Shown in pieces: positions 2,719 to 57,564 of a stretch of 64,000 bases of DNA. Source of the stretch: Amphiura filiformis. Taxonomy: Eukaryota. The notes under the pieces were generated by a model. It was not told the origin of the DNA. It saw only the letters and a program-made list of their open reading frames with translations, and made no database searches. Where the stretch lies: the NCBI RefSeq assembly GCF_039555335.1, contig NC_092646.1:36987911-37051910 (forward strand), in the 5' to 3' direction. The position numbers were made by a program, and so were the translations under genes. Positions within the stretch are counted from its first letter, which is position 1. The number at the start of each line of letters is the position of its first letter.

Positions 2719-2905
2719 GTCAGAAGACGTGCCTTCACATCCACGGTGTATTCCCGTACATTTACATTCCCTACAATGGCACAGAACCATTGGATAAATA
2801 CACATTGCAGTTTGCAAACAGCTTAGATTTAGCCATCCAGGTATCCTTAGGGAGGGCATCATCAACAACGGAACATGTTTTCAAAGTATCCCTCGTCACT
2901 GGAAT
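2719..2905 (+). CDS. REV3L: REV3L-like exon (partial gene). Encodes GQKTCLHIHGVFPYIYIPYNGTEPLDKYTLQFANSLDLAIQVSLGRASSTTEHVFKVSLVTG-.
   Basis: Acceptor tttcatttctag|GT at 2717-18 and donor GGAAT|gtaagt at 2906. The peptide closely matches the N-terminal region of human REV3L as I recall it (GQKTCLHLHGIFPYLYVPYDG...STAQHVFKVSLVSGM). The exon ends in phase 2 and the next exon completes the ATG codon. Confidence 0.85.
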
Positions 2906-2930
2906 GTAAGTATGAACCATCAAATCAGCC

Positions 2931-3135
2931 TTAACCCCATGAGAACTACCTGCCGATTGGCCAAAAATAAGTTTACATTATCAATTGACCCAATCAGCAA
3001 CATTGTTAGAATAATTTCACCACACAAAAAAATTGAGGTGAATTATTTCAAAGCTCCATTCTGATTGGTGATAAAAAGTGAAAATATCATGTAATTGACC
3101 AATCAGAGGCAATGTTAGATCGGCAGGTAGTTCAG
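2931..3135 (+). mobile_element. TTAA-flanked MITE (piggyBac-like), copy 1, 3'-truncated at the duplication junction.
   Basis: Begins ttaaCCCCATGAGAACTACCTGCCGATTGG. Contains internal ccaatcag/ctgattgg motifs. Ends ...gatcggcaggtag. Family TIR is ~24 bp: TTAACCCCATGAGAACTACCTGCC / GGCAGGTAGTGCTCAAGGGGTTAA. Confidence 0.8.
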
Positions 3136-3236
3136 TTTGCAAACAGCTTAGATTTAGCCATCCAGGTGTCCTTAGGGAGGGCATCATCAACAACGGAACA
3201 TGTTTTCAAAGTATCCCTCGTCACAGGAATGTAAGT
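3136..3236 (+). pseudogene. Pseudo-exon: a duplicated 95-nt 3' portion of the 2719-2905 exon, including an intact gtaagt donor.
   Basis: Near-identical to 2811-2911 (QFANSLDLAIQVSLGRASSTTEHVFKVSLVTGM plus gtaagt). It is preceded by ...gtagttcag|, a potential acceptor. Its length of 95 nt is not a multiple of 3. Confidence 0.8.
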
Positions 3237-3255
3237 TTGAACCATCAAATCAGTC

Positions 3256-3460
3256 TTAACTCAATGTGAACTACCTGCCGATTGTCCAAAAAGAAGTTTT
3301 CATTATCAATTGGCCCAATCAGCAACATTGTTAGAATAATTTCACCAGGCAAAAAAGTTGGGGTGAATTATATGCAAAGATCCATTCTGATTGGTGATTA
3401 AAGTGAAAATATCATGTAATTGACCAATCAGAGGCAATGTTAGATCGGCAGGTAGTGCAG
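3256..3460 (+). mobile_element. Same MITE, copy 2, inside the tandem repeat.
   Basis: cttaactcaatgtgaactacctgccgattg ... gatcggcaggtagtgcag. Confidence 0.75.
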
Positions 3461-3561
3461 TTTGCAAACAGCTTAGATCTAGCCATTGAGGTGTCCTTAG
3501 GGAGGGCATCATCAACAACGGATCATGTTTTCAAAGTACCCCTCGTCACAGGAATGTAAGT
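3461..3561 (+). pseudogene. Second pseudo-exon copy, again with the donor retained.
   Basis: Third unit of the 325-bp tandem repeat, slightly more diverged (gatctag, cattgag, ggatcatg). Confidence 0.8.
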
Positions 3562-3580
3562 ATGAACCATCAAATTTTCC

Positions 3581-3802
3581 TTAACCCATGAGAACTACCT
3601 GCCGATTGGTCAAAAAAAAGGTTTTCATTATCAGTTGGCCCAATCAGCAACATTGTTAGAATAATTTCACCACACAAAAGAATTGGGGTGAATTATTTGC
3701 AAAGCTCCATTCTGATTGGTGATTAAAGTGAAAATATCATGTAATTGACCAATCAGAGGCAATGTTACATGTGTAGATTGGCAGGTAGTGCTCGGGGGGT
3801 AA
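3581..3802 (+). mobile_element. Same MITE, copy 3, with a complete 3' TIR.
   Basis: ttaacccatgagaactacctgcc ... gattggcaggtagtgctcggggggtaa. Confidence 0.8.
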
Positions 3803-7346: not shown

Positions 7347-7962
7347 TTTAAAGGGGTACTACACCCCTGGCCAATTTTGTGCCTATTTTTGCAATTTTCT
7401 CATTGATGACAAGTAAGATATGTATATTATAGGGGCAAGGATTACAACTACTGCACTGGAAATTTTATTTCAGCACAGACAACACTTGTGGAGTTACAGT
7501 CAAAAATGAGGGAAAACCACTATTTGATCAATAAATCAATAACTACTTGTCTTGAGTTGCTGAATTTTCAGTGCAGTAGTTATATCTTAAGCGCTTCAGA
7601 CTCCGAGTATTATGCGTACAATATTGTATGTACAATATATGCGTTATTTAATCTATTGCCATTCTATTTCCAGTAATGTTTAAGTTCTAACGAATGTTTG
7701 ATGACGAAAAATCGATAATATGTTACATACAATATCTAGCAGAAATATATTATCGATTTTACGTCATCAAACATTCGTTAGAACTTAAACAGTACTGGAA
7801 ATAGAATGACAATAGATTAAATAACGTACATATTGTACATACAATATTGTACGTACAATAAAAAGTCTGTATACTGCTTTACTTGTCACCAATGCGCTAT
7901 AATTTTTGAGAAAAATGCAAAAATAGGCACAAAATTGGCCAGGGGTGTAGTACCCCCCTTAA
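7347..7962. mobile_element. TTAA-flanked foldback element of ~615 bp.
   Basis: ttaaaggggtactacacccctggccaattttgtgcctatttttgca at 7347-7392 and its reverse complement at 7917-7962 (...cccccttaa). The inner palindrome is 7640-7870. A terminal fragment ggtgtagtacccccttaa also occurs at 54433-54455. Confidence 0.8.
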
Positions 7963-10060: not shown

Positions 10061-10502
10061 AAAAAACGGCTGATTTTAATTTCACACAGCTAAATAAATT
10101 CCCCATAATGTAAAATTGGGGTCAGTCGGGCCCGTCGAATAGAGTTTTTTCCATCACCAAATGCAAAAATACACACAGTAACCTTTGGATTTTCTCTGCA
10201 TTTTGCATCTGCAACTCTCTTCATTTCATTTTGCCCATTTCTCCATTGTGAGTGTTTTTGTTGCGTGCCGGTTTCCAAGATACAGAAAAATAATCAAATC
10301 AGTCTGAGCTATATGAAAATGCCTTGTTGATTGAATGTTGATTGAGTTGTGACACGCAACTTGCTATTCAAATTGTAAGCAAGCTATATCATACAACTAT
10401 ACAAGACAATGAAAGGTCTTGTGGATCTAGCGGACTTGCTGCTCTTGTTTATCCAGTACTGTCAAAATGGGAATTTTTTGGGAACACTAATTTTCATGCT
10501 AA

Positions 10503-10660: not shown

Positions 10661-11231
10661 ATGTTTTATGGCCACTTTTGATCGATCATTGGAAAAGGGA
10701 TGTGTAGTCAATGAATTAGCCATCTTCTGATTTTTGGTGATTTCTTCCCAGGATTTCTTTACTACTAAATTCAGTGAAATAACCCAAATTACAGCTATTT
10801 TGGGTGCTCCAATTGGACATCTTCTGATTTTGGGTGATTTCTTTTACATCAATTTTAGGTGCCTTTTAACTGTTGTCGCCACTTCGCGAGAATCTGTGAA
10901 TGAAAATATTAATTTGCAGCTTCGCGCGAAGGCATTCATGTATACTTCCATCAAAATATCGCCGAGTATGGCAAAGAATTGTTGCCCGCACTGTGCTTTC
11001 TTATAGAACTTCTCTGGCCTACACCCCAAGTTGAACCAAATACAACTCTCCGCAAAGCGAAGAAACCTGGTCCGCGAAGTTATAAAATTTCAGCTAAAAT
11101 TTCTTCACAGCCTGCAAAATTGCAGCCTCGAAGTGGAGTATACATCAGACTTTACAGCTATTTTGGGTGAATTATTTACTTCTATGTACTACAAATTACC
11201 CAACTATATTTTGGGTGCCTTTGATTGGTAA

Positions 11232-11447
11232 GGAACAAGCCAAAAGATCGATGACGTCCTATAAACGTAACTAGTTTAGTTTCTCAGCCGACCCCCTCCC
11301 TCCCTGCCAGAAACATAATAAAGAAATGTTGAAAATTATTCTTCAGACCGATGTTTTTGTACAAACGTAATCAAGTATTTTTACCCCCTCCCCCCTAAAT
11401 GAAACTAGTTTCGTTTATAGGACGTCATCGATCTTTTGGTTTGTTCC
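11232..11447. mobile_element. MITE with ~38-bp TIRs.
   Basis: ggaacaagccaaaagatcgatgacgtcctataaacg and its reverse complement (11232-11270 / 11405-11447). The same TIR (ggacgtcatcgatcttttggtttgttccctaa) recurs at 52426-52458. Confidence 0.7.
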
Positions 11448-11760
11448 CTAATTGGGCTACTTTCTCATCACCCACCACCCACTCTTTTGATGATGTGATG
11501 CTTGGCTGTATCTTTACATACACGACTGTAGACACAAAGTCATGGCAACCCTTTTATTATGTACTTCTGTACTACAAGTTCAATGAAATTACCCAACTAC
11601 ATTTTGTGTGCCTTTGATTGGTAATTGGGTGCATTTTTATGGTAATTGGGCTACTTTCTCCTCACCCACCACTCCCTTGATGATGTGATGCTTGCTGTAT
11701 CTCATAGACTACAAACGCAAAGTCATGGCAACCCTTTTTATTATCAATACAGTACCTTTC
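11448..11760. repeat. Tandem duplication, ~185-bp unit x2.
   Basis: taattgggctactttctc.tcacccaccac.c..cttttgatgatgtgatgcttg..gtatct....aca..c.caaagtcatggcaacccttttt occurs at 11448 and 11640. Confidence 0.75.
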
Positions 11761-22755: not shown

Positions 22756-24662
22756 ACACAGATTTATCTGGTTTGTAGATATTTAATTATAATTTGGAAT
22801 TTTCATCTTTCAAAACCAAAATATTGACACTGACCACAGTTTTGTACGTCTTGGACGACACACTTCTTCAGAGTAATTATTGGTATCCCATCCTCAATGC
22901 TGGTGGTAACAGCTCCATCCTGAGAGTGCATGGGTTTTGAGGGTGCAGCACCAAAGGGGCTCCAAAAATATAATCTACTTATTCCACAGGAATATTTGTA
23001 TTATAAAAGGAATTTCAATATTTTGTAGCTTCCAAATTCTCTTTCAGATATGTAAATTTTAATATTTTTGTGTGTGTGGAAGTTAAATGTTTATGATAAG
23101 AGTAATAGTAACTAGGAAAAAGCAATAGACCTTTTCATACTAAGTAATCCCGATAAAACCCGAAGCATGAAATAATTTCCTCAATCGCGCGCGCATAAAC
23201 GTACCTCTTCAGCATCATGTACAGTGCAAAGGTCCAATGTGTAACAGGCATCATAAACTACGACGAACTTTCGACGGTCAATCTATGGAAGAGGGAGGTA
23301 CTTTTGCCAAGGATACTCAACGTGCAATCAAGCGTGTGGGGGTAGTGTTGTGTAAGAGACTGACTGTGGAAGAGGTGATACACATAAGCAAAACGTTCTG
23401 TAAAAAAATTAACTGACGAAAATGACGGAGATTTGTCCATTTCTTTCCATTAGTATCTTATTGTGAAAAACCAAGTACCTGAGGTGTTAGCTCAATATGC
23501 TAGGAAAATATATCTATATTTCCCCATGTTCACATTGGCTTAATAAGCTGTATTTTCGCACAAAAGGGTGTCGTAATTCATGACATTTCTTGTCCGCCAG
23601 TTTGGGTACAATTTGACCCCCTAGCTTACTGAATAAATAGCGCGGTTTTCCGAACTTTTCCGATCTTGATTTGAAAAGTCTTTGGCATATTGGCTAAATA
23701 ATAATGAGCATATGATTGGAATTTCATTTTTAACCACAAATAGCTGCATTAAAACATGGAGAAAATAATATTAATGAAAAGAAGTGAATGAGAATGGACT
23801 GGACATAAAAGTAATTAAACCAAACATATTCTACTAAAACCAATTACATAAATTGACATTTTATACCAATAAATAGCAGTGGCAATGAAGCGTATATCTT
23901 TTCTGGTGTTTTTCTGTTGAACATCATTCACAGCATATTATAAAAATTAGAATTGCATAATGAAATTCATGCTGAATTGTTTTAAACAATTCAGCTTAAA
24001 AGCCATATGTAATGTACATCTGTTTAAAAATAAAATTGTTTTAAACCTGATGTTTTGGCATATTTGAAATGTTTACACATGTCCGCACTTTACACGTAAT
24101 TGAAATATACCAAATTCATTGGGTTTGTAGTACGCAGGTCATTAACATCATCATGATTTTGTGGAGCTTACATACTTTTTGATTCCTTGTCCATTCTCAT
24201 TGTGTAATATGTTTGTTTAGAACTGTGCCCATTGGAATGATTTTAAAATTGCGACCTGATTGACAAGTGTCACCAAACCATCAGTCGAAAGTGTGACAGT
24301 ATAAAAATTAGGGAATTAAAAGAGGATATATCATAGCTACCAGGGATCGTTATTTTGCTGAGCGATGCTCGCATTTATGCAATGAAATACAAGCTTATAA
24401 TCTTGGTGAAATATGCATGTAATTTGGTCTAGGTAATTTTTCCAAGTTGTAAGTGTTAATTTATGTATAAAAATACCCTCTAAATGTGCCCAAAACCAGG
24501 AGCTTCGACTAGAATCCCCTGCACCCCCACCAGGGTCCCCGGCCTTTGTATGGATTGTCTCCGAGTAGCTTCCAGATTTTTTAGAAATCCTCAATCACAC
24601 CCCTGTGTAAATAACCATAAAGCAATTCAAAGTCTCAATTTTTTTTCCATGTCCACATGTAG

Positions 24663-24798
24663 AATCATCAGAACCCCTGTCAGGAAGTAGCAAGCATTCT
24701 GGGAGTAGTGATGATACATTGAACCAATCCACCCAAGGCAGTGGGTCATCGAGGTCAAGCGTAAACAGGCATGTGTGGACCAAAGACACCATACCCAG
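24663..24798 (+). CDS. REV3L: REV3L-like exon: ESSEPLSGSSKHSGSSDDTLNQSTQGSGSSRSSVNRHVWTKDTIP-
   Basis: Acceptor ccacatgtag| and donor CCCAG|gtaaga. Phase 1 in and phase 2 out are consistent. Weak similarity to human ...LFRWEQDEIPS. Confidence 0.7.
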
Positions 24799-31289: not shown

Positions 31290-33720
31290 GTTAAAATAGG
31301 TGTACTACATAGCATTATCTACTGATAGTATTGAATAGTAAGTCCTGAAATATGTGCGATGAAGTGGGTTACAATTTATCTACTGGAGGTAGCATTGAAA
31401 ACTTCAGTGGAATGTGTGTAATAAATTGGACATGCTATGTACTGAAGATAACACTGAAAACTTAAATGGAATATGTGTGATGAAATGTATTACACAAACT
31501 TTAAATAGACATGCTACAAAAACAATGTATCTACTGAAGATAGCATTGAAAACTTGATTGGAATATGTGTAATAAAACAACAAAGATACTATCTAGTATC
31601 TACTGAAGATATAGCATTGAAAACTTGACTTAAATATGTGTGATGAAATGTATTACACAATTTAAAAAAAAAGGCATGCTAGAAAAACAATGTATCTACT
31701 GAAGATAGCATTGAAAACTTGACTTGAATATGTGTGGTGAAATGTATTGAATGCAAACTTTAAAATAGACATGCTATCTACTGAAGATAGCACTGAAAAC
31801 TTGACTTGAATGTGTGTGGTGAAATGTATAAATGCAAACTTTAAAATAGACATGCTATCTACTGAAGATAGCATTAAAAACTTGACTTGAATATATGTGA
31901 TGAAATGTATTACACACATTTTAAAATAGACATGCTATCTACTGAAGATAGCACTGAAAACTTAACTTGAATATATGTGATGAAATGTATTACACAAATT
32001 TTAAAATAGACATGCTATCTACTGAAGATAGCACTGAAAGATTGACTTGAATGTGTGACAAATTATATTAAATGCAACTTAAAAATGGACATGCTATCTT
32101 CTGAAGATAGCATTAAACACTTGCCTGGAATGTGTGTAATAAAATGGACATGCTATCTACTGAATATAGCATTGAAAACTTGACTTGAATATGTGTGGTG
32201 AAATGTATTACACAAACTTTAAAATAGACATGCTATCTACTGAAGATAGCACTGAAAACCTGACTTGAATCAACATTGTGACGAATTGTATTAAATGCAA
32301 ATTTAAAATGGACATGTTATCTTCTGAAGATAGCATTGAACATTTGACTGGAATGTGTGTAATAAAATGGACATGCTATCTACTGAAGATAACACTGAAA
32401 ACTTAACTTGAATATGTGTTATAAAATGTACATGCTATCTACTGAAGATATAGCATTGAAAACTTGATTTATGTATATTTGGTGAAATGTATTACACAAA
32501 CTTTAAAATAGACATGTTATCTACTGAAGATAGCACTGAAACATTGACTTGAATGTGTGACAAATTGTATTAAATGCAACTTTAAAATGGACATGTTATC
32601 TTCTGAAGATAGCATTAAACACTTGACTGGAATGTGTGTAGTAAAATGGACATGCTATCTAAGAAGAAAGCACTGAAAACTTGACTTGAATATGTGTGGT
32701 GAAATTTATCACACAAACTTTAAAATGAACATGTTATCTACTGAAGATAGCACTGAAACATTGACCGAAACATGTGAAAGGAAAATGGATGTATGCTATC
32801 TACTAAAGGAAGCACTGAATTCTTGAAATATATTATGCCAACTTCAAAATAGATATGCTATCTACTGAAGATAGCACTGAAAACTGGAATATGTGTGATA
32901 AATTGGACATGCTATCTTCTGAAGATACCACTGAAACCTTGACATGAATATGTGCAGTTAGATGTATTACACCAACTTTAAATTGGACATGCTGTCTACT
33001 GAAGATAGCACTGAATGCTTGAATGAAACGTGTGTAATGAAATGGATATATGCTATCTACTGAAAATAGGAATTCTTGACATGAATATGTGTGATGAAAA
33101 TTATCACACAAACTTTAAAATGAACATGTTATCTACTGAAGATAGCATTGAATGCATGACTGAAACATGTGTAATGAAAATGGATGTATGCTATCTACTG
33201 AATTAAGGAAGCATTGAATTTTTGAAATATATTACACCAACTTCAAAATGGATATGCTATCTACTGAAGATAGCACTGGATGCTTGACTTGAAAGATGTA
33301 TGATGAAATGCTATCTACTGAAGATAGCACTGAAAACTTGACTGCTATCTTCTGAAAGATACCACTGAAACCTTGACATGAATATGTGCAGTTAGATGTA
33401 TTACACCAACTTTAAAATGGACATGCTATCTACTGAAGATAGAACTGAATGCTTGACTGAAATATGTGTAATAAAATAGTCACATTAGACATTCTATCTG
33501 CTGAAGGTAGCACTGATTCTTGACTTACAGATTCATGATGAAATGCTATCTACTGAAGATACTAAAATTTTAACTGGAATATGTGTAATAAATTGGATGT
33601 GCTGTCTACTGATGATAGCACTGAAAACCTTGGCTTGAATATATGTTTGATGAAATATATTACACAAACTTTTGCTATCTACTGAAGGTAGCAAGCAGTC
33701 AAAACTTGACCTGACACTCA
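31290..33720. repeat. Satellite array, ~82-bp unit x ~30.
   Basis: The unit is gacatgctatctactgaagatagcactgaaaacttgacttgaatatgtgtgatgaaatgtattacacaaactttaaaata. The core gctatctactgaagatagc is itself a near-palindrome. The ORFs 31662..31919, 32833..33111 and 33533..33721 are artefacts. Confidence 0.9.
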
Positions 33721-34985: not shown

Positions 34986-35083
34986 GTCTCAATGGTTGGA
35001 TGAGGATGTAACAAGACAAAGTACCTGTGACTTAGAGGCAGATGCCGTCGCTGTCGATATATTAAATAGATTGGAAATAGAAG
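34986..35083 (+). CDS. REV3L: REV3L-like exon: (R)SQWLDEDVTRQSTCDLEADAVAVDILNRLEIE-
   Basis: Acceptor tgtttttcag| and donor GAAG|gtgagc. Matches human PQSTCELDVDAVAADILNRLDIEAQ. Confidence 0.82.
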
Positions 35084-37305
35084 GTGAGCATTGAATGATG
35101 TACACTGCAGATTTTACCTTTTTTGTTAACCCCATGGACTCCACTGCATTTCTTACCACGCCCCGATTGGTTAATCACATTATATATGATAATCTGGGTA
35201 ACCAATCAAAATAGAGCTTTTATATGTGACACGATCTGGTCCATGGGGGGCCAAAGGCGGCATTTTTGAAAATTTAGTTACTGTGATTATTATATTATAC
35301 ATAGGCTATCATTTACTGAAAACACCAAAGGTCTAGCATACTTGGTTCTTAAGTTATAAAGTTTTTTGATGTCTATTTTCTTATGTATTTTATTGTTTTT
35401 TGTTAAATATTTTTACCTTTACCTCAGTTTCAAATTTGCCGCCTTTGGCCCCCATGGACCAGATCATGTCACATATCTCTCTGCATTTTTAAGCTTAATC
35501 CCTTTCAGCCTGACGGGCTATTCTTACCATATGTGACCGTTCACTACGATTGAGCCGTAAATTCCTCCCCTGGTCAATTTAGTTTTATTTCATGTTTAGA
35601 AAATATATATATCATAAGCTTTAAAATGGTATATCATTTGACTTCAAACGATATCCAGAAGCAGGGTTATGGTTTGTTGAACTTTGCTCTTTCTACATGT
35701 GTCTCTTTTTCCATATTGCTGGTAAAAATATCAAACAGTCATAATTGGCGGTCATTTCAAATCATCCCCAAGTCAACGAGGTCCTCTCACCACTTGAACA
35801 GGATTTAGCCAAAGCAAACAAAGACCAGAGCTATTTAAAAATTCTATAGAAATAGGTAGAAGCTTATTATCCTCTTCAGCAATATGATTATTGATTGCTT
35901 TAAAAGATGTTTGACTAGCGCAATTAAAATCAGATACTTGTCACACCAACTTGAGGTACGTATGAATATGACCTTCATGCACATTTTACACTATAACTCG
36001 GAATACAATTTAGGACATTTACGGCTCATTCGTCGTGTACGGTCACATATCTGATATCCCTGATTGGCTCAATACATGATATAATCCACTTTTTAACCAA
36101 TCAAAATAGTTCTTCAGGTAATCTGGTCGGTAATGCCATGGGGTTAAAGCCTATAGTTTGCGTCTGACAATCAACTTCCTCACAGCCCATGATTGTTTAG
36201 TGGTATGTAAAAGGAAGGTTGATTCATCTGGTGCCTTCATCGAAGAAAAGGAATTGCAGAAAATGGCCAAAAATGATGGTACTTTAAATAGGCATTGTTG
36301 ATATGGTGGTTCAGGAAAGAAAGTTTCCAATTTACGACTAGGTGCAAAATTAAGCATAGAGCACAATGTTTTACCGTTGCATTCAGAAATTTCAATCATC
36401 ACAACAAGTTGTAAACTCTACACCCCCGGGATGATGTGTTTTGCGACACTCAAAAGGGGGAATGAGGTGGAAGTACCCTCTTGGAATAGTGCTTGGGGAA
36501 GTTGGGAAAAGGTTGATTGCCTTGTGCACTTTTATAGACAACATACATGTAGACTTGCAAAGTTGTGAAAAAACACTAAAAAAATGAAAAATGCACCTGA
36601 ACTATTTCATACAATTTGTGCATGATATTTTCAAAGATGCAGGTATCTCATTCAATGGTTTATGTAATAATATGTACCAGTTCTTTGAATAATGTAATCA
36701 GTAACAAAGGCTTTAAAGCCTAAATAATGATCACAAAATGGTTAAGTTAATCAGCAATGAATGAAACTAATTGGTATCTAACATATATTATGTTCCCTGC
36801 AAGCAAATCTTGTACCCTTCCCAGAATCCTTTGCAACATGATATACGGGCCTCATTTCACGTAACTTTGTACAGGTTCCCTTTGTTTTTATGTTGAGATT
36901 AGAATGGTTCAATATGGGTCAATAAGGGATGCACCATAAGATATTATCAGGGAAAATGTGCCTCACTGATGAGTAAAAAAATGTTTTCCCTACCCAGCTC
37001 TGTATGGACCCCATTGGAAATAAGTTGGCATATTTAGCCAACTTTATGGGTTATCCTGGCTCATTGACTTGGTTGTGTGTTTCTTGTGATGATGATTGAT
37101 TGCTTATTTGTTATTTTCTGTATTGTTGTCAATTTTGCCAAATAAATAATAAATAAATAAATATACATTAACATTGAAAAAAAAAATTGCCCCCAAAGGC
37201 AGTGAAAAAAAAATATGCCGCCTTAGGCGGCGAAAAAAAAAAATTCCGCCTGACACTAACTCCCTAGCCCCCAATAATATTTAATGGTGCGTCCCTAATA
37301 AAAAA

Positions 37306-38700: not shown

Positions 38701-40367
38701 CAATACATGTACACAAAGTACAACTGGGAATGAATACTGTAAAACTACTTTTTTTTAATTTAATTTTTAATTTAATTTTTTTTATTTATTTGTTCGGGAT
38801 TTTGACAACCCTGGATAACCCAAGCTCTATTGAAGCTTATTTCCATTGGGGTCCATTTGAATACCGGGACGGGTTGGGAACAGTCAGGGGTTAACACCCT
38901 ACTCTTTTCGAAATTGGCTGTGAGATACATGTACAGGTATGGCTCTCTGCCACTTAATTTCGCTGGGGATATAATTTCGCTAATTTAATACACACTAATC
39001 TGACAGTTTTACATGTTTTGTTTGCTGAATTAGTGAAATTAAATATCAATGAAAATGGTAGTCCTTGGAAATGAGCAAAATCAAGAACTAGCAAAATTAA
39101 ATAGCTTTACAGTATATGTGATCTTATTGCACATTTAATGTGGAAGGGTGAGGTTATTGTCTGTTTGTTTGATGCTTGCTGTGATCAGTTGTCAACAGAA
39201 ATATTGTTTGATAAATTAGAATGTGAACTAAAGGGTGCAAACCACCAAATCAAGTTCCTATTCTTCTATGTGTTAAAAGGTATAGATAAATTGATAATTT
39301 TCTCATGATTAAAACTCCCTGGTTCATTCAAAACACCATTTTGCCTAATGTTTATGATATCTTCTACCATATAACCAATAATTTTTTGGTAGGTAAGCAG
39401 TAGTGGTGCACCATTTTGCCTAATGTTTATGATATCTTCTACCTTATAACCAATAATTTTTTGGTAGGTAAGCAGTAGTGGTGCATTGAAAACTACGTAA
39501 ACCCTATCAATCTTACAGCACACTGTCTTTATGAAGTGACATCATATGGTGGCGTAGATCCAATAACATACCTCAAATTTCAGAATGTAATCTTTTTATG
39601 CTTAGATGTTGAGAAAACCATCCACTAAAGTACAGTTATCACAAAAAAAATCAGGCATATCAGCATTCTTTTCAATTTTTTTTGTCATGAAATCAAGCCA
39701 GTATGGTTCTCAGAATGAAAACACTGTATTTTTTGGTATCAGCCATTTAGCTCTGATCCAATTTGGTGTTGTGAAATCTAAACATTTGGAAAGACTTCAC
39801 TAAATATGTGTACACAAAGTTGAAGCTGAAATAAATCAATAGGGCATCGCACATTGTAAGTTAGAAATAATATTGTCTGTTCTATGTTTGTTTGCTTGCT
39901 TTATGACTTGCTGTGTTAAGTTTTAATATTAACACAAGTAAAATGACCTGTACTCAATTTTTCAGAAAATAAATCTTGAATATTATTTACATATATACCA
40001 GTATTCAGATCATTACTTTATGTGAATTTTTTTATATGCCCATAAGGTACTTTTATGGGAAATGCACCATTGGGCACAATCAGGGTTGTAGCGACGGTGG
40101 CGGCGCTGGTCGGCAATAACCAGTTCAGCCTGACTGACCGGCACTCATGGGAATTAATGGGTCTTGCCGACCAGCACTAAAATGACAAATTGTCCTCAAA
40201 ACAGCTGTCAAATGCCATTACTGTCTTGAAGTAATTGGCATTCTGATTCAATTTTCTCTTAATTTTAGCCGGCACTAAACTTTGACTAGCTACAGCCCTG
40301 GCTGCACAATTTGACCCGATTTGTTTTTATGGGCACAATTTGACCCAATTTGTTTTTATGGTTGCAG

Positions 40368-40472
40368 GGGCAGTGGGTGCGAATCCTGGCTTGGTAGCTA
40401 TCTGGGAAGATGAGAAACAAAGGAGAGAGTTGCTGGGACAATTGGATGACTTAGTGCCGCCATCCTCACCAG
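40368..40472 (+). CDS. REV3L: REV3L-like exon: GAVGANPGLVAIWEDEKQRRELLGQLDDLVPPSSP-
   Basis: Acceptor tggttgcag| and donor CACCAG|gtgaga. Matches human GGNPGLQAIWEDEKQRRR. Confidence 0.82.
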
Positions 40473-40994
40473 GTGAGAAAACAGTTACGGGAAGAATCAT
40501 GGTGTAAATCAAGGCTTTGTGCTGTTTATACTTTGCTTAACTTTAGACTCATAACTTTGTGAAGATAGTGTGCACACAGTTTGGCGCAGCACCTTGCACG
40601 CAGTTGGGCGCAGGAATATGTATGTGACCAGATCTGATCCAATTTGGCTAAAGTCAGCAATAATGAAACTGAGATATAGGCAAAAAGTACTAGTGTGGAG
40701 GGATAAAAACCCAATAAGAAACATAAAAATAGACATATAAAATGTTCATAATTTTGCAACCAAATAGTCAAGAGATCTGGGGATTCAACATCAGTAAGTG
40801 TACTTAGGTACTGTGCAAGTTGGTAATTTTCTGACTTTGGCCTGAGTGGATCAGGTTGGGTCACATATTTTAGGAATGGTTATAAGAAGAGAAATAGGAG
40901 AGCCAGTAAGGAAGCCCTCATCCCAACCCTAAACCTATTCCTAAACATAACTTTGACGTAATCCTAATTCATATCCTAACCATGACCTAACCCA

Positions 40995-51740: not shown

Positions 51741-52516
51741 GCATAATAACGCTTCATTTTGGATCCCTTAAGCGGTCAAAACCATTTTGTCCACAAAGCG
51801 GTTAAAACCAGGTTCAACAGAAGTTGATATTATGGACCAATGGGCACTTACAGAAGGATATGCTTTATAAAAAAGAAGGATTTACGGGGGAGGGTTCTTC
51901 AAAATATTTTTGTATGGGGATGTGCCACACAGACTTGTGGATGCTGACTTTCTCTACTTAAAAATATACTTTTTGCTGTTTTCACACAAAAAAAACACAA
52001 AAAAAACAAAATTTGTCATAATTGGGAACTTTTAAGCCCCTTTTTCCCAAATGTGCCCGCATTGGGCGCAATGGTCTCCACTGAAAACGCACCCATCGAT
52101 ATAGCCCAAAACGGTGACACATACCCCAAAATGGTTGCACATACCTGTATACCTTCAAACATTGAGACAGCCTCCCCCCATCCTGGATTTACTTTTGCTC
52201 ATTGATAAAATTTTGGTTCAGTTATGGGACAGACCAAAAGATTGATAATATCCTACATGTAGAAATAAAACTTGGATTCACTTGGGAAGAGAGGTCAAAA
52301 AGTGATCATGTTTGTTAAAAGGATTAAACATAGATACAGAAAATGATGAATTGGCAACAATTCACAATTATGTTTCAAGCAGGGAGGGAGGGTGTGAGCC
52401 TTCTAAAAAACCTAGATTTGTTCTAGGACGTCATCGATCTTTTGGTTTGTTCCCTAAAGGCGGTCGTGCTAAATATATCATGGCTCTTACCCGTTTCTTA
52501 TTTTTCACCTTAACAG

Positions 52517-52665
52517 GAAAGAAGCTGGTTGTGAAATGTTGACCCAGTCTATACTGGATGAAGAGTCACAGACCGATGATGACCTTAAATCACCATCTCA
52601 ACCCCAGGGTGCCGAATCACCTATTCCAAGCAGCCAGATAGATTTCCACCTGTCTCAAGAAAGAG
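52517..52665 (+). CDS. REV3L: REV3L-like exon: LKEAGCEMLTQSILDEESQTDDDLKSPSQPQGAESPIPSSQIDFHLSQER-
   Basis: Acceptor caccttaacag| and donor AAGAG|gtaaca. The frame stays open and the phase is consistent with its neighbours. No direct homology check was possible. Confidence 0.65.
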
Positions 52666-54739
52666 GTAACATAATTGATATGATTTAAAGTTTTATTCAT
52701 GTATAAAGGATCTGTTCACCTAGCGGAAGCTTCAAAACTTGACTGGCGGTCAATCGGGGGTTCGGTGCAGTTTCCATTGTTCAGAACAATAGAAATGGGA
52801 CGGAACCAGCAGTTGACTGCTGGTCGAGTTTTAGTTTCATCCCCTAGTGTCTATTTGATATCACAACAATCTGTAACATATGGCCGGGGGAGGGTATTCA
52901 GTACAAATGACCATACAGGGATGTGCTGCAAACATGAGTCTCATTTTTGGCCATTTTGCATATCAATGACCCATTTTTTCCCTATTTCCCCCAAAATAGC
53001 ACAATTTTGGAAACTGTTGACTGTGGATGGGTCCACTTTTAAAATACTGCTCTTTCCCATTCACCACCACAACAGAAATCTTTCACTCAGAGGAAGTTTG
53101 AGGAATAGCTAAGGAATTAACAGCACATTGATCGACAGAATTTTGGCGGCTATAAAATGGTCTGATGTTGCCAAAATTTGATCTTGACTTTTGATATCTG
53201 TGTATCCCATTATTATAATCACTGGAAAAACACACTTAAAAAAGAATTGAAAGTCACTTTAATAAATAATTAAGGGGGAATAATACCCTGATTTTCATCA
53301 GTACCCCTCTTCTTCTTTTTCTTGCAAATTTATAAAGTACATAAATATGTTCATCACCTCATGTCATGAACTTATAAAATACATCTACATACAAAGTGTT
53401 TTTAAACCATTTTAGTAAGTCATTTTAGCCCTATATATTTTTTGTTTACTGTATCCTAGGTACTGAGATGTGTGTTTCATAACAAACCATAATTTATTCT
53501 ATTGAACATGTCCAAGTAGAATACATGAATAGAATACATTAAATCCTTCGTTATACTATCTATAGAAATGCACTCACTGATTATAACACTGAATAAATTA
53601 AATACGCCTAATCTCTTCCACATAGACAATTTAATACTACTACATGTATGTATCTTCTATAATGTGTTGTTAGGAAAAGAGATTAAAAAAGGCTATAAGG
53701 TCATCAAAGGTCAGGTGAATACATGTGATAGTCTGTGATATCATACATGTCATAATGAGGCATCAATTTTGATATTTTATCTGTTACTGGATATATAATG
53801 GAAATGTGTGAGGTGGATATACTAAAATACCTTGGGATGTAAATGGTGAGTACAATTTAGATTGCCTAGTTGAGATGGATTGGGCAAATAAATATAAAAT
53901 AGTTACCAAAATCACAAAAATGAAGCTTACGGAAAACTACCTAATATGGTGGTATAGGTGACAAAAAATGCAATCTATTTCAACATTGCTGTAGTGTGGT
54001 TGTGGTAACCTGTTACCTATGGCTTAATTAAGTTTCAGTGAAATAGTGTCATGAAGTTCAAAATACAAAATATAGCTCAACATTGAAAATAGAAGCATTT
54101 TAACCGGTTCGTTTTTTGATAGTTGTGGAGCACCAAGTTCATGAAGTCATAAAAGAAATCAGGAACCACTTATTCCCATTTTACATATCAACATTATTTC
54201 CCTAATGTGTTAGCAACACATATCCAACATTTTAACGAAATCAGTTGATAGTAAGCTTTCCAAAATGAAGTGAATTTAAAACATCAGTGATGTACCACTT
54301 TTTGGCTTATGTCATTGATACTGATCCACCAATTGAACGAGAAGATTTGCCCCTTCATTTTGCATACCACTTTGTCCAATTTCTTTTCTCATTTCTTCAC
54401 AAAATGCAAAAAAAAACAAAAAAAATGCAATGGGTGTAGTACCCCCTTAATATTAATAGAGTGGAATTAAAATTTGCACTTAAGTTTACTCTTACTATAG
54501 CTAAAATTCTTAGCTAATTCTTGATCATGAGAGCCAACTTGGTGTACGCACAGATATTTGCATCGAGCGTACTATGCAGAGGCCACATGCTTACGGCGCA
54601 AGCACATCTTTTGAGAATCACAGTCTTTGGTCTTGCGATGGTGTTTTTCTCTACAAAAAGTACGCTGACACAACAATACGCAGAAGGTACATCCATCCTC
54701 TCATGACCGAGAATTAGATATTTAGTCAATAATAATTTA

Positions 54740-54895
54740 ACCTAATCAATTTACACATAATTTTGCTATTGCAAATGATTTTCCTACCAATTTGCGTTTG
54801 ATTTTACTCTTACAAATAATTTTACCTATCCAAATATTTTCACTTTTGTCTCAAACAGATGAAGATGGTCCACCAATGTCATTAACAATTGTAAA
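54740..54895 (+). repeat. Local duplicate of the exon-55215 acceptor region plus the first 23 nt of that exon (decoy acceptor).
   Basis: 54740-54885 is ~80% identical to 55095-55237, including ttttgtctc.aacag|ATGAAGATGGTCCACCAATGT. The copy then diverges and reaches a TAA within 30 nt. Confidence 0.8.
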
Positions 54896-55214
54896 TTTGT
54901 ATGTGTAACAATGAAAAGAATAAAAAGAAATTAAAGTCGGTTTAGTAAAGAAATTAATATTAGTAGTGTGGAAGTCCAATTTGCACTGAATTGGCTCTTT
55001 TAAGAGCAAAATTAAGTGCAAATTGGACTACACAAATTGGTCATTATAAGTGCAAATTCTTTAGGTAAAATTATTGAAAAAATTATTTTACCTTAACAAT
55101 TTACGTGTAATTTTGCTCTTGCAAATAATTTTCCTACCAATTTAATTTGCATTTGATTTTGCTCTTACATATTAATTTCACCTATCAAAATATCATCTCT
55201 TTTGTCTCCAACAG

Positions 55215-55328
55215 ATGAAGATGGTCCACCAATGTTAGTAAGAGAAGATACAGAGCCTGTGGTTGATGAAGATTTAGTGTATTCCTTTCTGGATTCTTCA
55301 CAGCCTTCAACAGCATCTCTGAAAAAAG
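55215..55328 (+). CDS. REV3L: REV3L-like exon: DEDGPPMLVREDTEPVVDEDLVYSFLDSSQPSTASLKK-
   Basis: Acceptor ttgtctccaacag| and donor AAAAAG|gtattg. Phase consistent. Confidence 0.65.
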
Positions 55329-56057
55329 GTATTGTGCTTTGTATATATGTGTAATGGTCATGTCATAGTAAGCAGTCACTCCTACTCTTTTCACCTTGAG
55401 GTTGAGACGTTACTGCATGTTTTATTTTAGGTCCAGTGGCAGCGCAACAGGGGGCATTGGGGGCAATAGCCTCCCCAAATTATAAAAATTTACACTTTTG
55501 GTACCAAAAAACAAATTCCTGCCACTGCCACTGTTAAGGTTGCCTAGCATTGAAACGTGTGCTGTTCTTGGAATCACAGTATAATAATTATGCTCACATG
55601 TAAAGGCAGCACAATTATTGTAATGATCTCTCGCATACAGAAATGCATTTTAACATCATATCAAATCACAAAGTGAGATGAGCTATAGTGTAGTGTATAT
55701 AGCTGGGACAAATATGCAGAAATCTGGTACCTGCTCACCCCTTAGGCATCCCTGGTCTGAATTTAAGGTACAGGTTACTTGAAAGACATTATTTGATATG
55801 TTCATAAGCTTTGTCGTAGTTCACTAAGCTTGAGTGGTAAGTTTCATGGCACCTATGAAGTGGTCCCAGCCAGACAATCGAGTTACAAGAGGCCAGAGTT
55901 GTATTATATCGCATGAATTAAAGATGTGCTCTCAGGTCCCACAAAAATACTGTACACACATTGTTATCCGATTCCTTGAAGTTCTGATTTTTATAATAGC
56001 TGATTAATATTTGACTTTGTTTATATTTTTCTGTCATTCTTAATATCTCATGATCAG

Positions 56058-56224
56058 ACCAAGAACTTGTTGATCTGCTACTTGAGCTTGCGCACGGTGA
56101 CACCCAAATGGAAGAACCAGAAGAAGGAAGCATCCTCTCCGCCAAGCTGCCAAGGATGATGGCGACACCCCTCTGGCAGCTAGCCAGGTGGCAGGAGGCG
56201 AGAGACGAAGAGGACAATGAGGAG
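56058..56224 (+). CDS. REV3L: REV3L-like exon part 1: DQELVDLLLELAHGDTQMEEPEEGSILSAKLPRMMATPLWQLARWQEARDEEDNEE
   Basis: Acceptor ctcatgatcag|. This frame runs into a TAA at 56228-30 unless the 38-nt GT..AG segment 56225-56262 is removed (see findings). Confidence 0.6.
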
Positions 56225-56262
56225 GTGTAATGGATGCCTTGGAGTCACTACACATGTCACAG

Positions 56263-56375
56263 GCCTGGGACGATGAGACACCAAAGAATGAGATGGAAGA
56301 TGGAGATGATGATGACGAGGAGGAGGTGGAGGATGAAGGGGGAGAGGAAGGAGATTTGTATAATACCCCAAATAG
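56263..56375 (+). CDS. REV3L: REV3L-like exon part 2: AWDDETPKNEMEDGDDDDEEEVEDEGGEEGDLYNTPN-
   Basis: Acidic open frame that ends at the classic donor AATAG|gtaagg. It joins in frame to part 1 only through a 38-nt excision. The alternative is a frameshift in the assembly. Confidence 0.55.
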
Positions 56376-57564
56376 GTAAGGTGATATTGAAGAGGTTAGA
56401 CTACTCCCTATTCCATAAAAATACAGCACTTTTTTGAGACTAAAAAGATATTATCCTGTTTTGCCAAATGAAACATAACTAAATCCCAATCCTTTAGCTA
56501 GTTCTAACTGGCAATTACAGTCAAATTTGAATATTTTTCCAATTTGAGGGAAAATGGACAAAATTGTGCAATTTTGCATGTTTTCTTACAAATGTAGTCC
56601 CAAATTCTAAGACTTGGCACAAATCTAAGCATTCAAAATCTTGAGCATAGGCCAATAATTAGCTAAAAATTTAAATATTTTGTGTTATTTTTGATAATTG
56701 GTTATGAAAAAGATTAGAAAATATGCTTTCCAAAATTTAGAATGAATTAGTCTTTGTACAAGTTTTTTGTTTTGATTGTCACAACATACGAAAAAAAAAC
56801 CTAAAACACATGTTGAGCAATTTAAAATTATTTGTGCTCAATTGTCGTCAGTCTTCCTTGTCTAACTGGGACATCATTACCACAGGCAATTTCTGTGCTT
56901 GGGAAATTTGAATAACATGTGGTGAGAGACGGCTGTGGTTATTTGTTTTTAAGGTCAATATGAGTTTGTTGTAATAAAACCATGTGATTTGTGCTTGATA
57001 AGTCATAATGTTGTGATTGCTTGAGACTCCCTTTAATAGTTAAGAGAGTATGACATGAACACAAATTATCACTGCATATTAAAAACGCAAACTTTGTTTG
57101 TAAGTCAACCATGAATGATCCTAGCATTTAGCTTTAAGTCCAGGGACACGTCAAAAAAAAATACTTTGGAGGAGGATTTTTTTGTTCAATAGAAAGCTAA
57201 ACATAAAGGATGTGTGTACTTAGTGTGTGATGTTGGTGATGTATTTTACATTGTAAAACCCTATAAAAAGATGTCAAATAGCTTGTTTTGGGCACTGTTT
57301 AATGGCTTAAACCCAGGAGCTTGGGGCAGTGCCCCTGGACCAGAGGCCCTAAGCTGAGCCCTTGGACCCCTGCTGCTAAATCGCCCCCCTAAACTCGCTT
57401 CGCTCTATTGGACTCAGTTTCCTAGGTTTTTAATGTTGGAAGGTATGCCACACTTACAAAACAAAATAACACATAATTATGCTCATCAACTGTATTAATT
57501 TTAATGTGAATGGAGCATTGCTATTATTAGATGAACAAATCTCTGACATTATGATTTCTTACAG

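Follow-up and report, generated by a model that had tools for sequence, protein, structure and literature searches.

A local tandem duplication of an intron-exon boundary in Amphiura filiformis, with a probably decaying acceptor upstream of the authentic one

An intron of an Amphiura filiformis gene carries, 356 bp upstream of an authentic 3' splice site, a second copy of that acceptor together with the first bases of the exon that follows. We analysed a stretch of 64,000 nucleotides (contig NC_092646.1; hereafter the window) and found the duplication to be larger than the initial annotation had it: the unit is a tandem segment of ~356 bp, with an upstream copy that starts at ~53239 and a right breakpoint that lies 21-27 nt inside the exon, termed exon B here. 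The reading we prefer, to which we assign a probability of roughly 0.72, is that this is the neutral relic of an old tandem duplication, the upstream copy being a decaying pseudo-acceptor that would act at most as a noisy cryptic site cleared by NMD.

The core of the repeat was recovered by BLASTN of 54300-55400 against the window, with 54728-54885 matching 55078-55241 at 83.5% identity over 164 columns (E 2.7e-44). This agrees with the original description of a diverged (~80%) duplicate of the acceptor and exon start that had arisen by local tandem duplication, and extends its limits, which had been placed at 54740-54885 and 55095-55237. Shared between the two copies are the pyrimidine tract, the AG and, without mismatch, the first 21 bases of the exon, and the acceptor context is the same in both (AACAG/ATGAAG). 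The 24-mer CAGATGAAGATGGTCCACCAATGT has two exact occurrences in the 64 kb, at 54856 and 55212, compared with 0 expected from shuffles. The exon-derived match is identical for 21 bases and agrees at 25 of the first 27, beyond which homology ends in the alignment; a figure of 23 copied nt is therefore replaced, as is a pseudo-exon start at ~54870, the actual start being 54859. The distance of 356 bp between the two acceptors refines an estimate of ~360 bp. As only 21-27 of the 114 nt of exon B were copied, this is not a whole-exon duplication, and mutually exclusive or substitute exons were rejected both on this ground and because the copied frame stops after 16 codons. Recursive splicing was also rejected, since the pseudo-acceptor is followed by AT and not by GT.

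To the left of the core, the upstream copy continues in two further pieces that are separated by insertions (Table 1). The leftmost piece aligns to its counterpart with a score of 35, compared with 18.5 ± 2.6 for shuffles (maximum 28; z about 6), while 54447-54508 matches 54954-55013 at 77% over 62 columns (E 9e-6). Between these two pieces lies a transposon with GGGGG.../...CCCCC inverted termini, the empty TTAA site of which is intact in the downstream copy at 54954-54957. It belongs to a multi-copy family: an element at 7348-7962 (~615 bp) carries this ~50-nt terminus at both of its inverted ends. The TTAA target site of this element is piggyBac-like. The second insertion, of ~210 bp, is bounded by the inverted repeats TAGCTAATTCTTGATCATGAGAG and CTCTCATGACCGAGAATTAGATA and has a relatively GC-rich interior; no second copy was found in the window, and the uninterrupted AAATTC/TTTAG junction of the downstream copy represents its empty site. 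Following removal of both insertions, the upstream copy could be aligned colinearly with 54922-55241. The colinear copies, together with two copy-specific insertions and their intact empty sites, therefore demonstrate an ancestral tandem duplication with a period of ~356 bp. TRF reported no tandem array here, the number of copies being too low and the copies being interrupted. Rfam and tRNA scans of 52000-57000 yielded sub-threshold matches only, and the ~210-bp insert and the hairpin located between the two acceptors were on this basis rejected as known RNAs; the match of the hairpin to Rfam mir-4798 reached 27 bits, below the gathering score of 75.

Table 1. Coordinates of the duplicated segment, its insertions and the exons at either side (positions within the window).
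Feature	Positions	Strand	Details
Leftmost piece of upstream copy	53239-53273	+	Ends in TTAA target site 53270-53273; aligns to 54922-54957
TTAA-flanked TIR transposon, 1.17 kb	53274-54446		Termini GGGGGAATAATACCC... / ...GGGTGTAGTACCCCC; TSDs TTAA 53270-53273 and 54447-54450
Middle piece of upstream copy ('X')	54451-54510	+	One ~42-nt unit inside
~210-bp element, upstream copy only	54511-54720		23-bp terminal inverted repeats, 87% complementary
Upstream duplicate core	54728-54885	+	Two ~42-nt units, pyrimidine tract, AG 54857-54858, exon-derived 54859-54885 (21 identical and 6 partly matching)
Stop in exon A frame on pseudo-acceptor use	54906-54908	+	TAA; from junction translation
Downstream intact copy	54922-55241	+	Ends 27 nt inside exon B; core 55078-55241
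Strong hairpin between the two acceptors	54967-55034	+	Two inverted ~42-nt units; right arm missing from upstream copy
Putative exon A	52517-52665	+	GT 52666-52667; possible ATG 52536; ends in phase 1 (...CAA GAA AGA G)
Putative exon B, 114 nt, phase 1-1	55215-55328	+	AG 55213-55214; GT 55329-55330
Exon C/D	56058-56375	+	5' part (DQELVDLL...EEGSILS) conserved coding; TAA 56228-56230 overlaps ATG 56230-56232

Both copies contain a ~42-nt unit, of which there are 7 copies, one of them inverted, all within 54468-55184 and none elsewhere in the window. It is conceivable, though unlikely, that the two copies form part of a repetitive element (a MITE or foldback with ~42-nt subterminal repeats) from which the acceptor and the first codons of exon B were exonised. 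The direct and inverted orientation of the units and the strong hairpins would suit such an origin, as would the genome itself (1.57 Gb, 59% repeats, with bursts of DNA transposons) and the occurrence of TTAA both at the left edge of piece X (54447-54450) and at the end of the upstream core (54882-54885). However, neither the unit, the 160-bp segment nor the exon 24-mer has further copies in the 64 kb, and no convincing TIRs or target-site duplications were found around the repeated segment. Colinear homology furthermore runs on to the left of the insertion site of the TTAA element, as in a tandem segment, and the shared exon bases display the codon usage of this gene.

The large downstream exon of the gene is 100% identical to an NCBI 'uncharacterized protein' (P0001, 1515 aa), for which Pfam searches with the protein and the N-terminal peptide identified no domains. 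Annotation places the start of the CDS at ATG 56230, downstream of exon B. A donor had been placed at 52666, and the GT is indeed at 52666-52667, so that exon A ends at 52665. Exons A and B and the 5' part of exon C, bounded by canonical splice sites, can be read together in one open frame of 143 codons. Using codon usage trained on the annotated CDS, exons A and B score 0.44 and 0.54 bits/codon respectively, against a maximum of 0.17 among 294 intronic open stretches of >=38 codons, and the remaining frames of both exons have negative scores. Four additional open stretches on the + strand (40358-40504, 32834-32944, 24644-24790 and 34987-35091) also have CDS-like codon usage, at 0.47-0.65 bits/codon in 30-codon windows; these are possible further upstream exons of the gene, or chance occurrences. 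The phase 1-1 arrangement of exon B means that splicing of A to C keeps the frame, and exon B could be a cassette exon.

When the A-B-C peptide was compared with protein databases, the only homolog was P0003, over exon C, with no homolog of exons A or B and no transcript-derived protein of this gene that would reveal the junctions in use; a match to P0004 from an exhaustive protein search was rejected as spurious low-complexity. The homolog, encoded at loci L001/L002 of a metagenome assembly, extends from DQELVDLL...EEGSILS through ...DALESLHMSQAWDD in one frame. This indicates that the ancestral coding sequence extended upstream of the annotated ATG, and that exon C requires an upstream phase-1 exon. 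L001/L002 correspond to ENA ERZ23486772 scaffold_137432 and to NCBI GCA_013332995.1 JAAUXV010119577.1, deposited as 'metagenome', and the ortholog encoded there shares 89% identity with exon C across its first 28 aa. The presence of a clear ortholog of a brittle-star exon identifies these contigs as animal (ophiuroid-like) DNA in a metagenome.

In the window, the A-B-C frame terminates at the TAA that overlaps the annotated ATG (TAATG), upstream of two introns. Relative to the P0003 homolog, deletions of 1, 5 and 1 nt are found within 56139-56232, the last of which is tied to this TAA. An extra G between GAGGAGG and TGTAATG would join the upstream frame to the annotated CDS, giving ...NEEGVMDALESLHM... 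in comparison with ...DDEGLQDALESLHM... in the homolog (...EEGVMDALES... and ...DEGLQDALES... respectively). The A. filiformis assembly was obtained from Nanopore R9.4.1 data using flye and Racon, and has a QV of 31.6 (PMC11310086). Given this quality, and given that one extra G restores ...EEGVMDALES..., the last indel at least may be an assembly error. Exons A and B and the first part of exon C probably belong to the coding sequence, from which the indels beside the annotated ATG separate them in the reference, and the annotated protein is probably truncated at its N-terminus, through either an assembly indel or a real frameshift.

Joining the end of exon A to 54859 would yield ...SQER followed by DEDGPPMSLTIVNLYV and a stop, reproducing the premature termination that had been proposed for use of the upstream copy. 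The frame is closed after 16 codons by a TAA 48 nt downstream of the pseudo-acceptor which, if the A frame is translated, lies >50 nt upstream of the later exon-exon junctions (55328, 56375 and 57677). In sequence terms the two acceptors are almost equivalent, with pyrimidines at 12/16 and 13/16 of positions -20 to -5 and branch-point-like motifs in both; at least 5 further AGs of this intron show an equal number of pyrimidines. A donor-like TAG/GTAAAA (GT 55065), matching crudely at 6/9 positions as do the inferred donors of the gene, could close a pseudo-exon of 206 nt. The near-equality of the acceptors and the presence of this donor-like site make cryptic use possible, and both count against the view that the upstream copy is a mere relic.

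These properties could be taken to indicate a functional 'poison' 3' splice site, the regulated use of which would introduce a premature stop and lower expression via NMD. We consider such regulation possible but improbable. In its favour are the intact acceptor, close in strength to the authentic one, the in-frame TAA with several exon junctions beyond it, the candidate donor at 55065, and the evidence for coding in the region, namely the coding-like codon usage of exons A and B and the conserved exon C with its need for an upstream phase-1 exon. However, comparison of the two paralogous copies did not reveal excess conservation at the upstream acceptor. Differences between the copies occur at 4/43 positions from -22 to +21, versus 23/121 elsewhere (Fisher p=0.16); 4.1 differences would be expected in this interval if the real site alone were constrained, so the 4 observed give no indication that the upstream copy is constrained. 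The pattern of mismatches fits neutral decay of that copy. In addition, the copy is split by two transposons, while the regulated poison exons known so far are strongly conserved (PMC11357089). The exon B frame itself already stops at TAA 56228, with the annotated CDS beginning at 56230, so the 'productive' isoform would not be straightforwardly productive, if the assembly is right. No orthologous intron was found: in the homolog contigs L001/L002, exon B had no match beyond a chance one to a run of poly-T, and scanning metagenomes for related loci returned the same 1.2-kb contig. Exact-ORF look-ups for other haplotypes or assemblies found nothing on record.

The hairpin between the acceptors has a predicted folding energy of -36.3 kcal/mol (z -7.3). 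A further palindrome is located at 55054-55102. Upstream of each acceptor lie direct units to which the inverted unit at 54988-55034 is complementary, and the corresponding duplexes are predicted at -27.2 and -33.9 kcal/mol, compared with -16.2 ± 3.6 for random intron segments. An elaborate version of regulated use would have the choice of 3' site governed by these competing pairings, as a docking/selector switch born by duplication and driving AS-NMD of a fast-evolving acidic protein of an echinoderm; we regard this as very unlikely. Docking/selector geometry is predicted to arise automatically when one arm of a stem-loop is duplicated (Ivanov & Pervouchine 2018, PMC6071210), and the pairing seen here is treated as a by-product of the duplication. 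With its immediate neighbour, the inverted unit is predicted to form a hairpin of -36.3 kcal/mol or a duplex of -41.8 kcal/mol, and this local hairpin dominates the predicted fold; the long-range pairings with the direct units are predicted not to compete with it. The arrangement thus resembles docking/selector structures in that one inverted unit pairs upstream of both acceptors, and differs from them in that the local hairpin is stronger (-36 to -42 kcal/mol) and full, mutually exclusive exons are lacking.

The least credible alternative, a falsely duplicated haplotype or mis-joined read, would be compatible with a Nanopore-based assembly of a highly heterozygous animal (3.22%), but the copies differ by two transposon insertions and by 13-15% substitutions plus indels, 4-5x the heterozygosity and ~200x the error rate at QV31.6, and an assembly artefact is therefore rejected.

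The event can be dated from the divergence of the copies, which show 21 substitutions at 158 aligned sites, corresponding to a JC distance of 0.146, or 0.161 for the intron part alone. A published neutral rate of 1.885e-9 per bp per year places the duplication at about 39-43 Myr, with limits of 20-67 Myr. We propose that an old, probably fixed local duplication of ~356 bp took in the last ~330 bp of the intron and the first 21-27 nt of exon B. Sequence of this kind, made up of direct and inverted ~42-nt units, readily undergoes slippage, unequal exchange or template switching, any of which may have given rise to the duplication. The downstream copy would have retained the role of working acceptor, leaving the upstream copy as intronic ballast that presumably drifted at about the neutral rate and was split by the two DNA-transposon insertions. 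Its 3' splice site would remain plausible although not needed, with a closed reading frame behind it. Most likely this has no effect; at most, the site would act as a low-level cryptic acceptor, with premature-stop products removed by NMD as splicing noise.

On this reading the locus offers a clean, datable case in which a local tandem duplication makes a spare acceptor that later decays and gathers transposons. As it stands it matters little, being an ordinary partial duplication of an intron-exon boundary, and the practical outcome is an annotation flag on the N-terminal exons of the gene. Were regulated use to prove true, it would represent a rare poison splice site caught at birth outside vertebrates and insects.

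Several known systems bear comparison with this arrangement. Letunic, Copley and Bork reportedly described, in 2002, intronic tandem copies of exons that had escaped annotation. Homology between intronic sequence and exons is common, and only a subset of such homologs is expressed (Acta Naturae 2022, PMC9013439). The present case is similar in that a neighbouring intronic homolog of an exon and its flank, of uncertain expression, derives from local tandem duplication, but here the copy consists of the acceptor and 21-27/114 nt only. It has no donor and no open frame, and is therefore no substitute exon. In Drosophila transformer, the alternative 3' splice sites of which were reportedly described by Sosnowski, Belote and McKeown in 1989, two acceptors likewise compete for one donor, with the upstream one leading to a stop codon. 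The choice in transformer is controlled by Sxl binding at the upstream pyrimidine tract, and the two sites are not duplicates of each other. The acceptors reported here, in contrast, are duplicates of one another, and no regulator or binding site can be inferred for them. Decoy exons are said to promote intron retention, as reportedly shown experimentally by Parra et al. in RNA in 2018. Decoys and pseudo-splice sites share with the upstream copy a good intronic splice-site sequence, and decoys are normally not joined into mRNA; the function of those decoys has been demonstrated by experiment. Known poison exons, which bring about AS-NMD of SR-protein and other genes, are highly conserved, and their use and regulation have been shown experimentally (PMC11357089, PMC11387194). 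An alternative splice choice would here, too, add a premature stop upstream of exon junctions. Unlike those exons, the upstream copy shows no sign of constraint, and the host frame is interrupted in the assembly.

It had also been suggested, by reference to a triplication at 2811-3785, that the splice sites of this gene are recurrent substrates for duplication. The tandem array is real, with corrected limits of 2808-3770, and consists of three 325-bp units that are 85-100% identical. No exon-like open frame was found in the array unit, nor any coding signal on the + strand by codon usage, and none of the 7 other exon boundaries of the gene has a local duplicate. The proposed recurrence is therefore unsupported. 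Each of the 325-bp units contains four CCAAT/ATTGG motifs (for example GACCAATCAGAGG), resembling NF-Y sites. A dispersed repeat at 55923-55980, in the intron between B and C, recurs at least 6 times elsewhere in the window, for example near 10502, 28986, 45142, 45711, 51121 and 51703. Directly upstream of exon A, a second dispersed repeat (52367-52457) matches 11229-11451 in both orientations, and a perfect 27-nt inverted repeat (57706-57732/57859-57885) is situated directly downstream of exon E.
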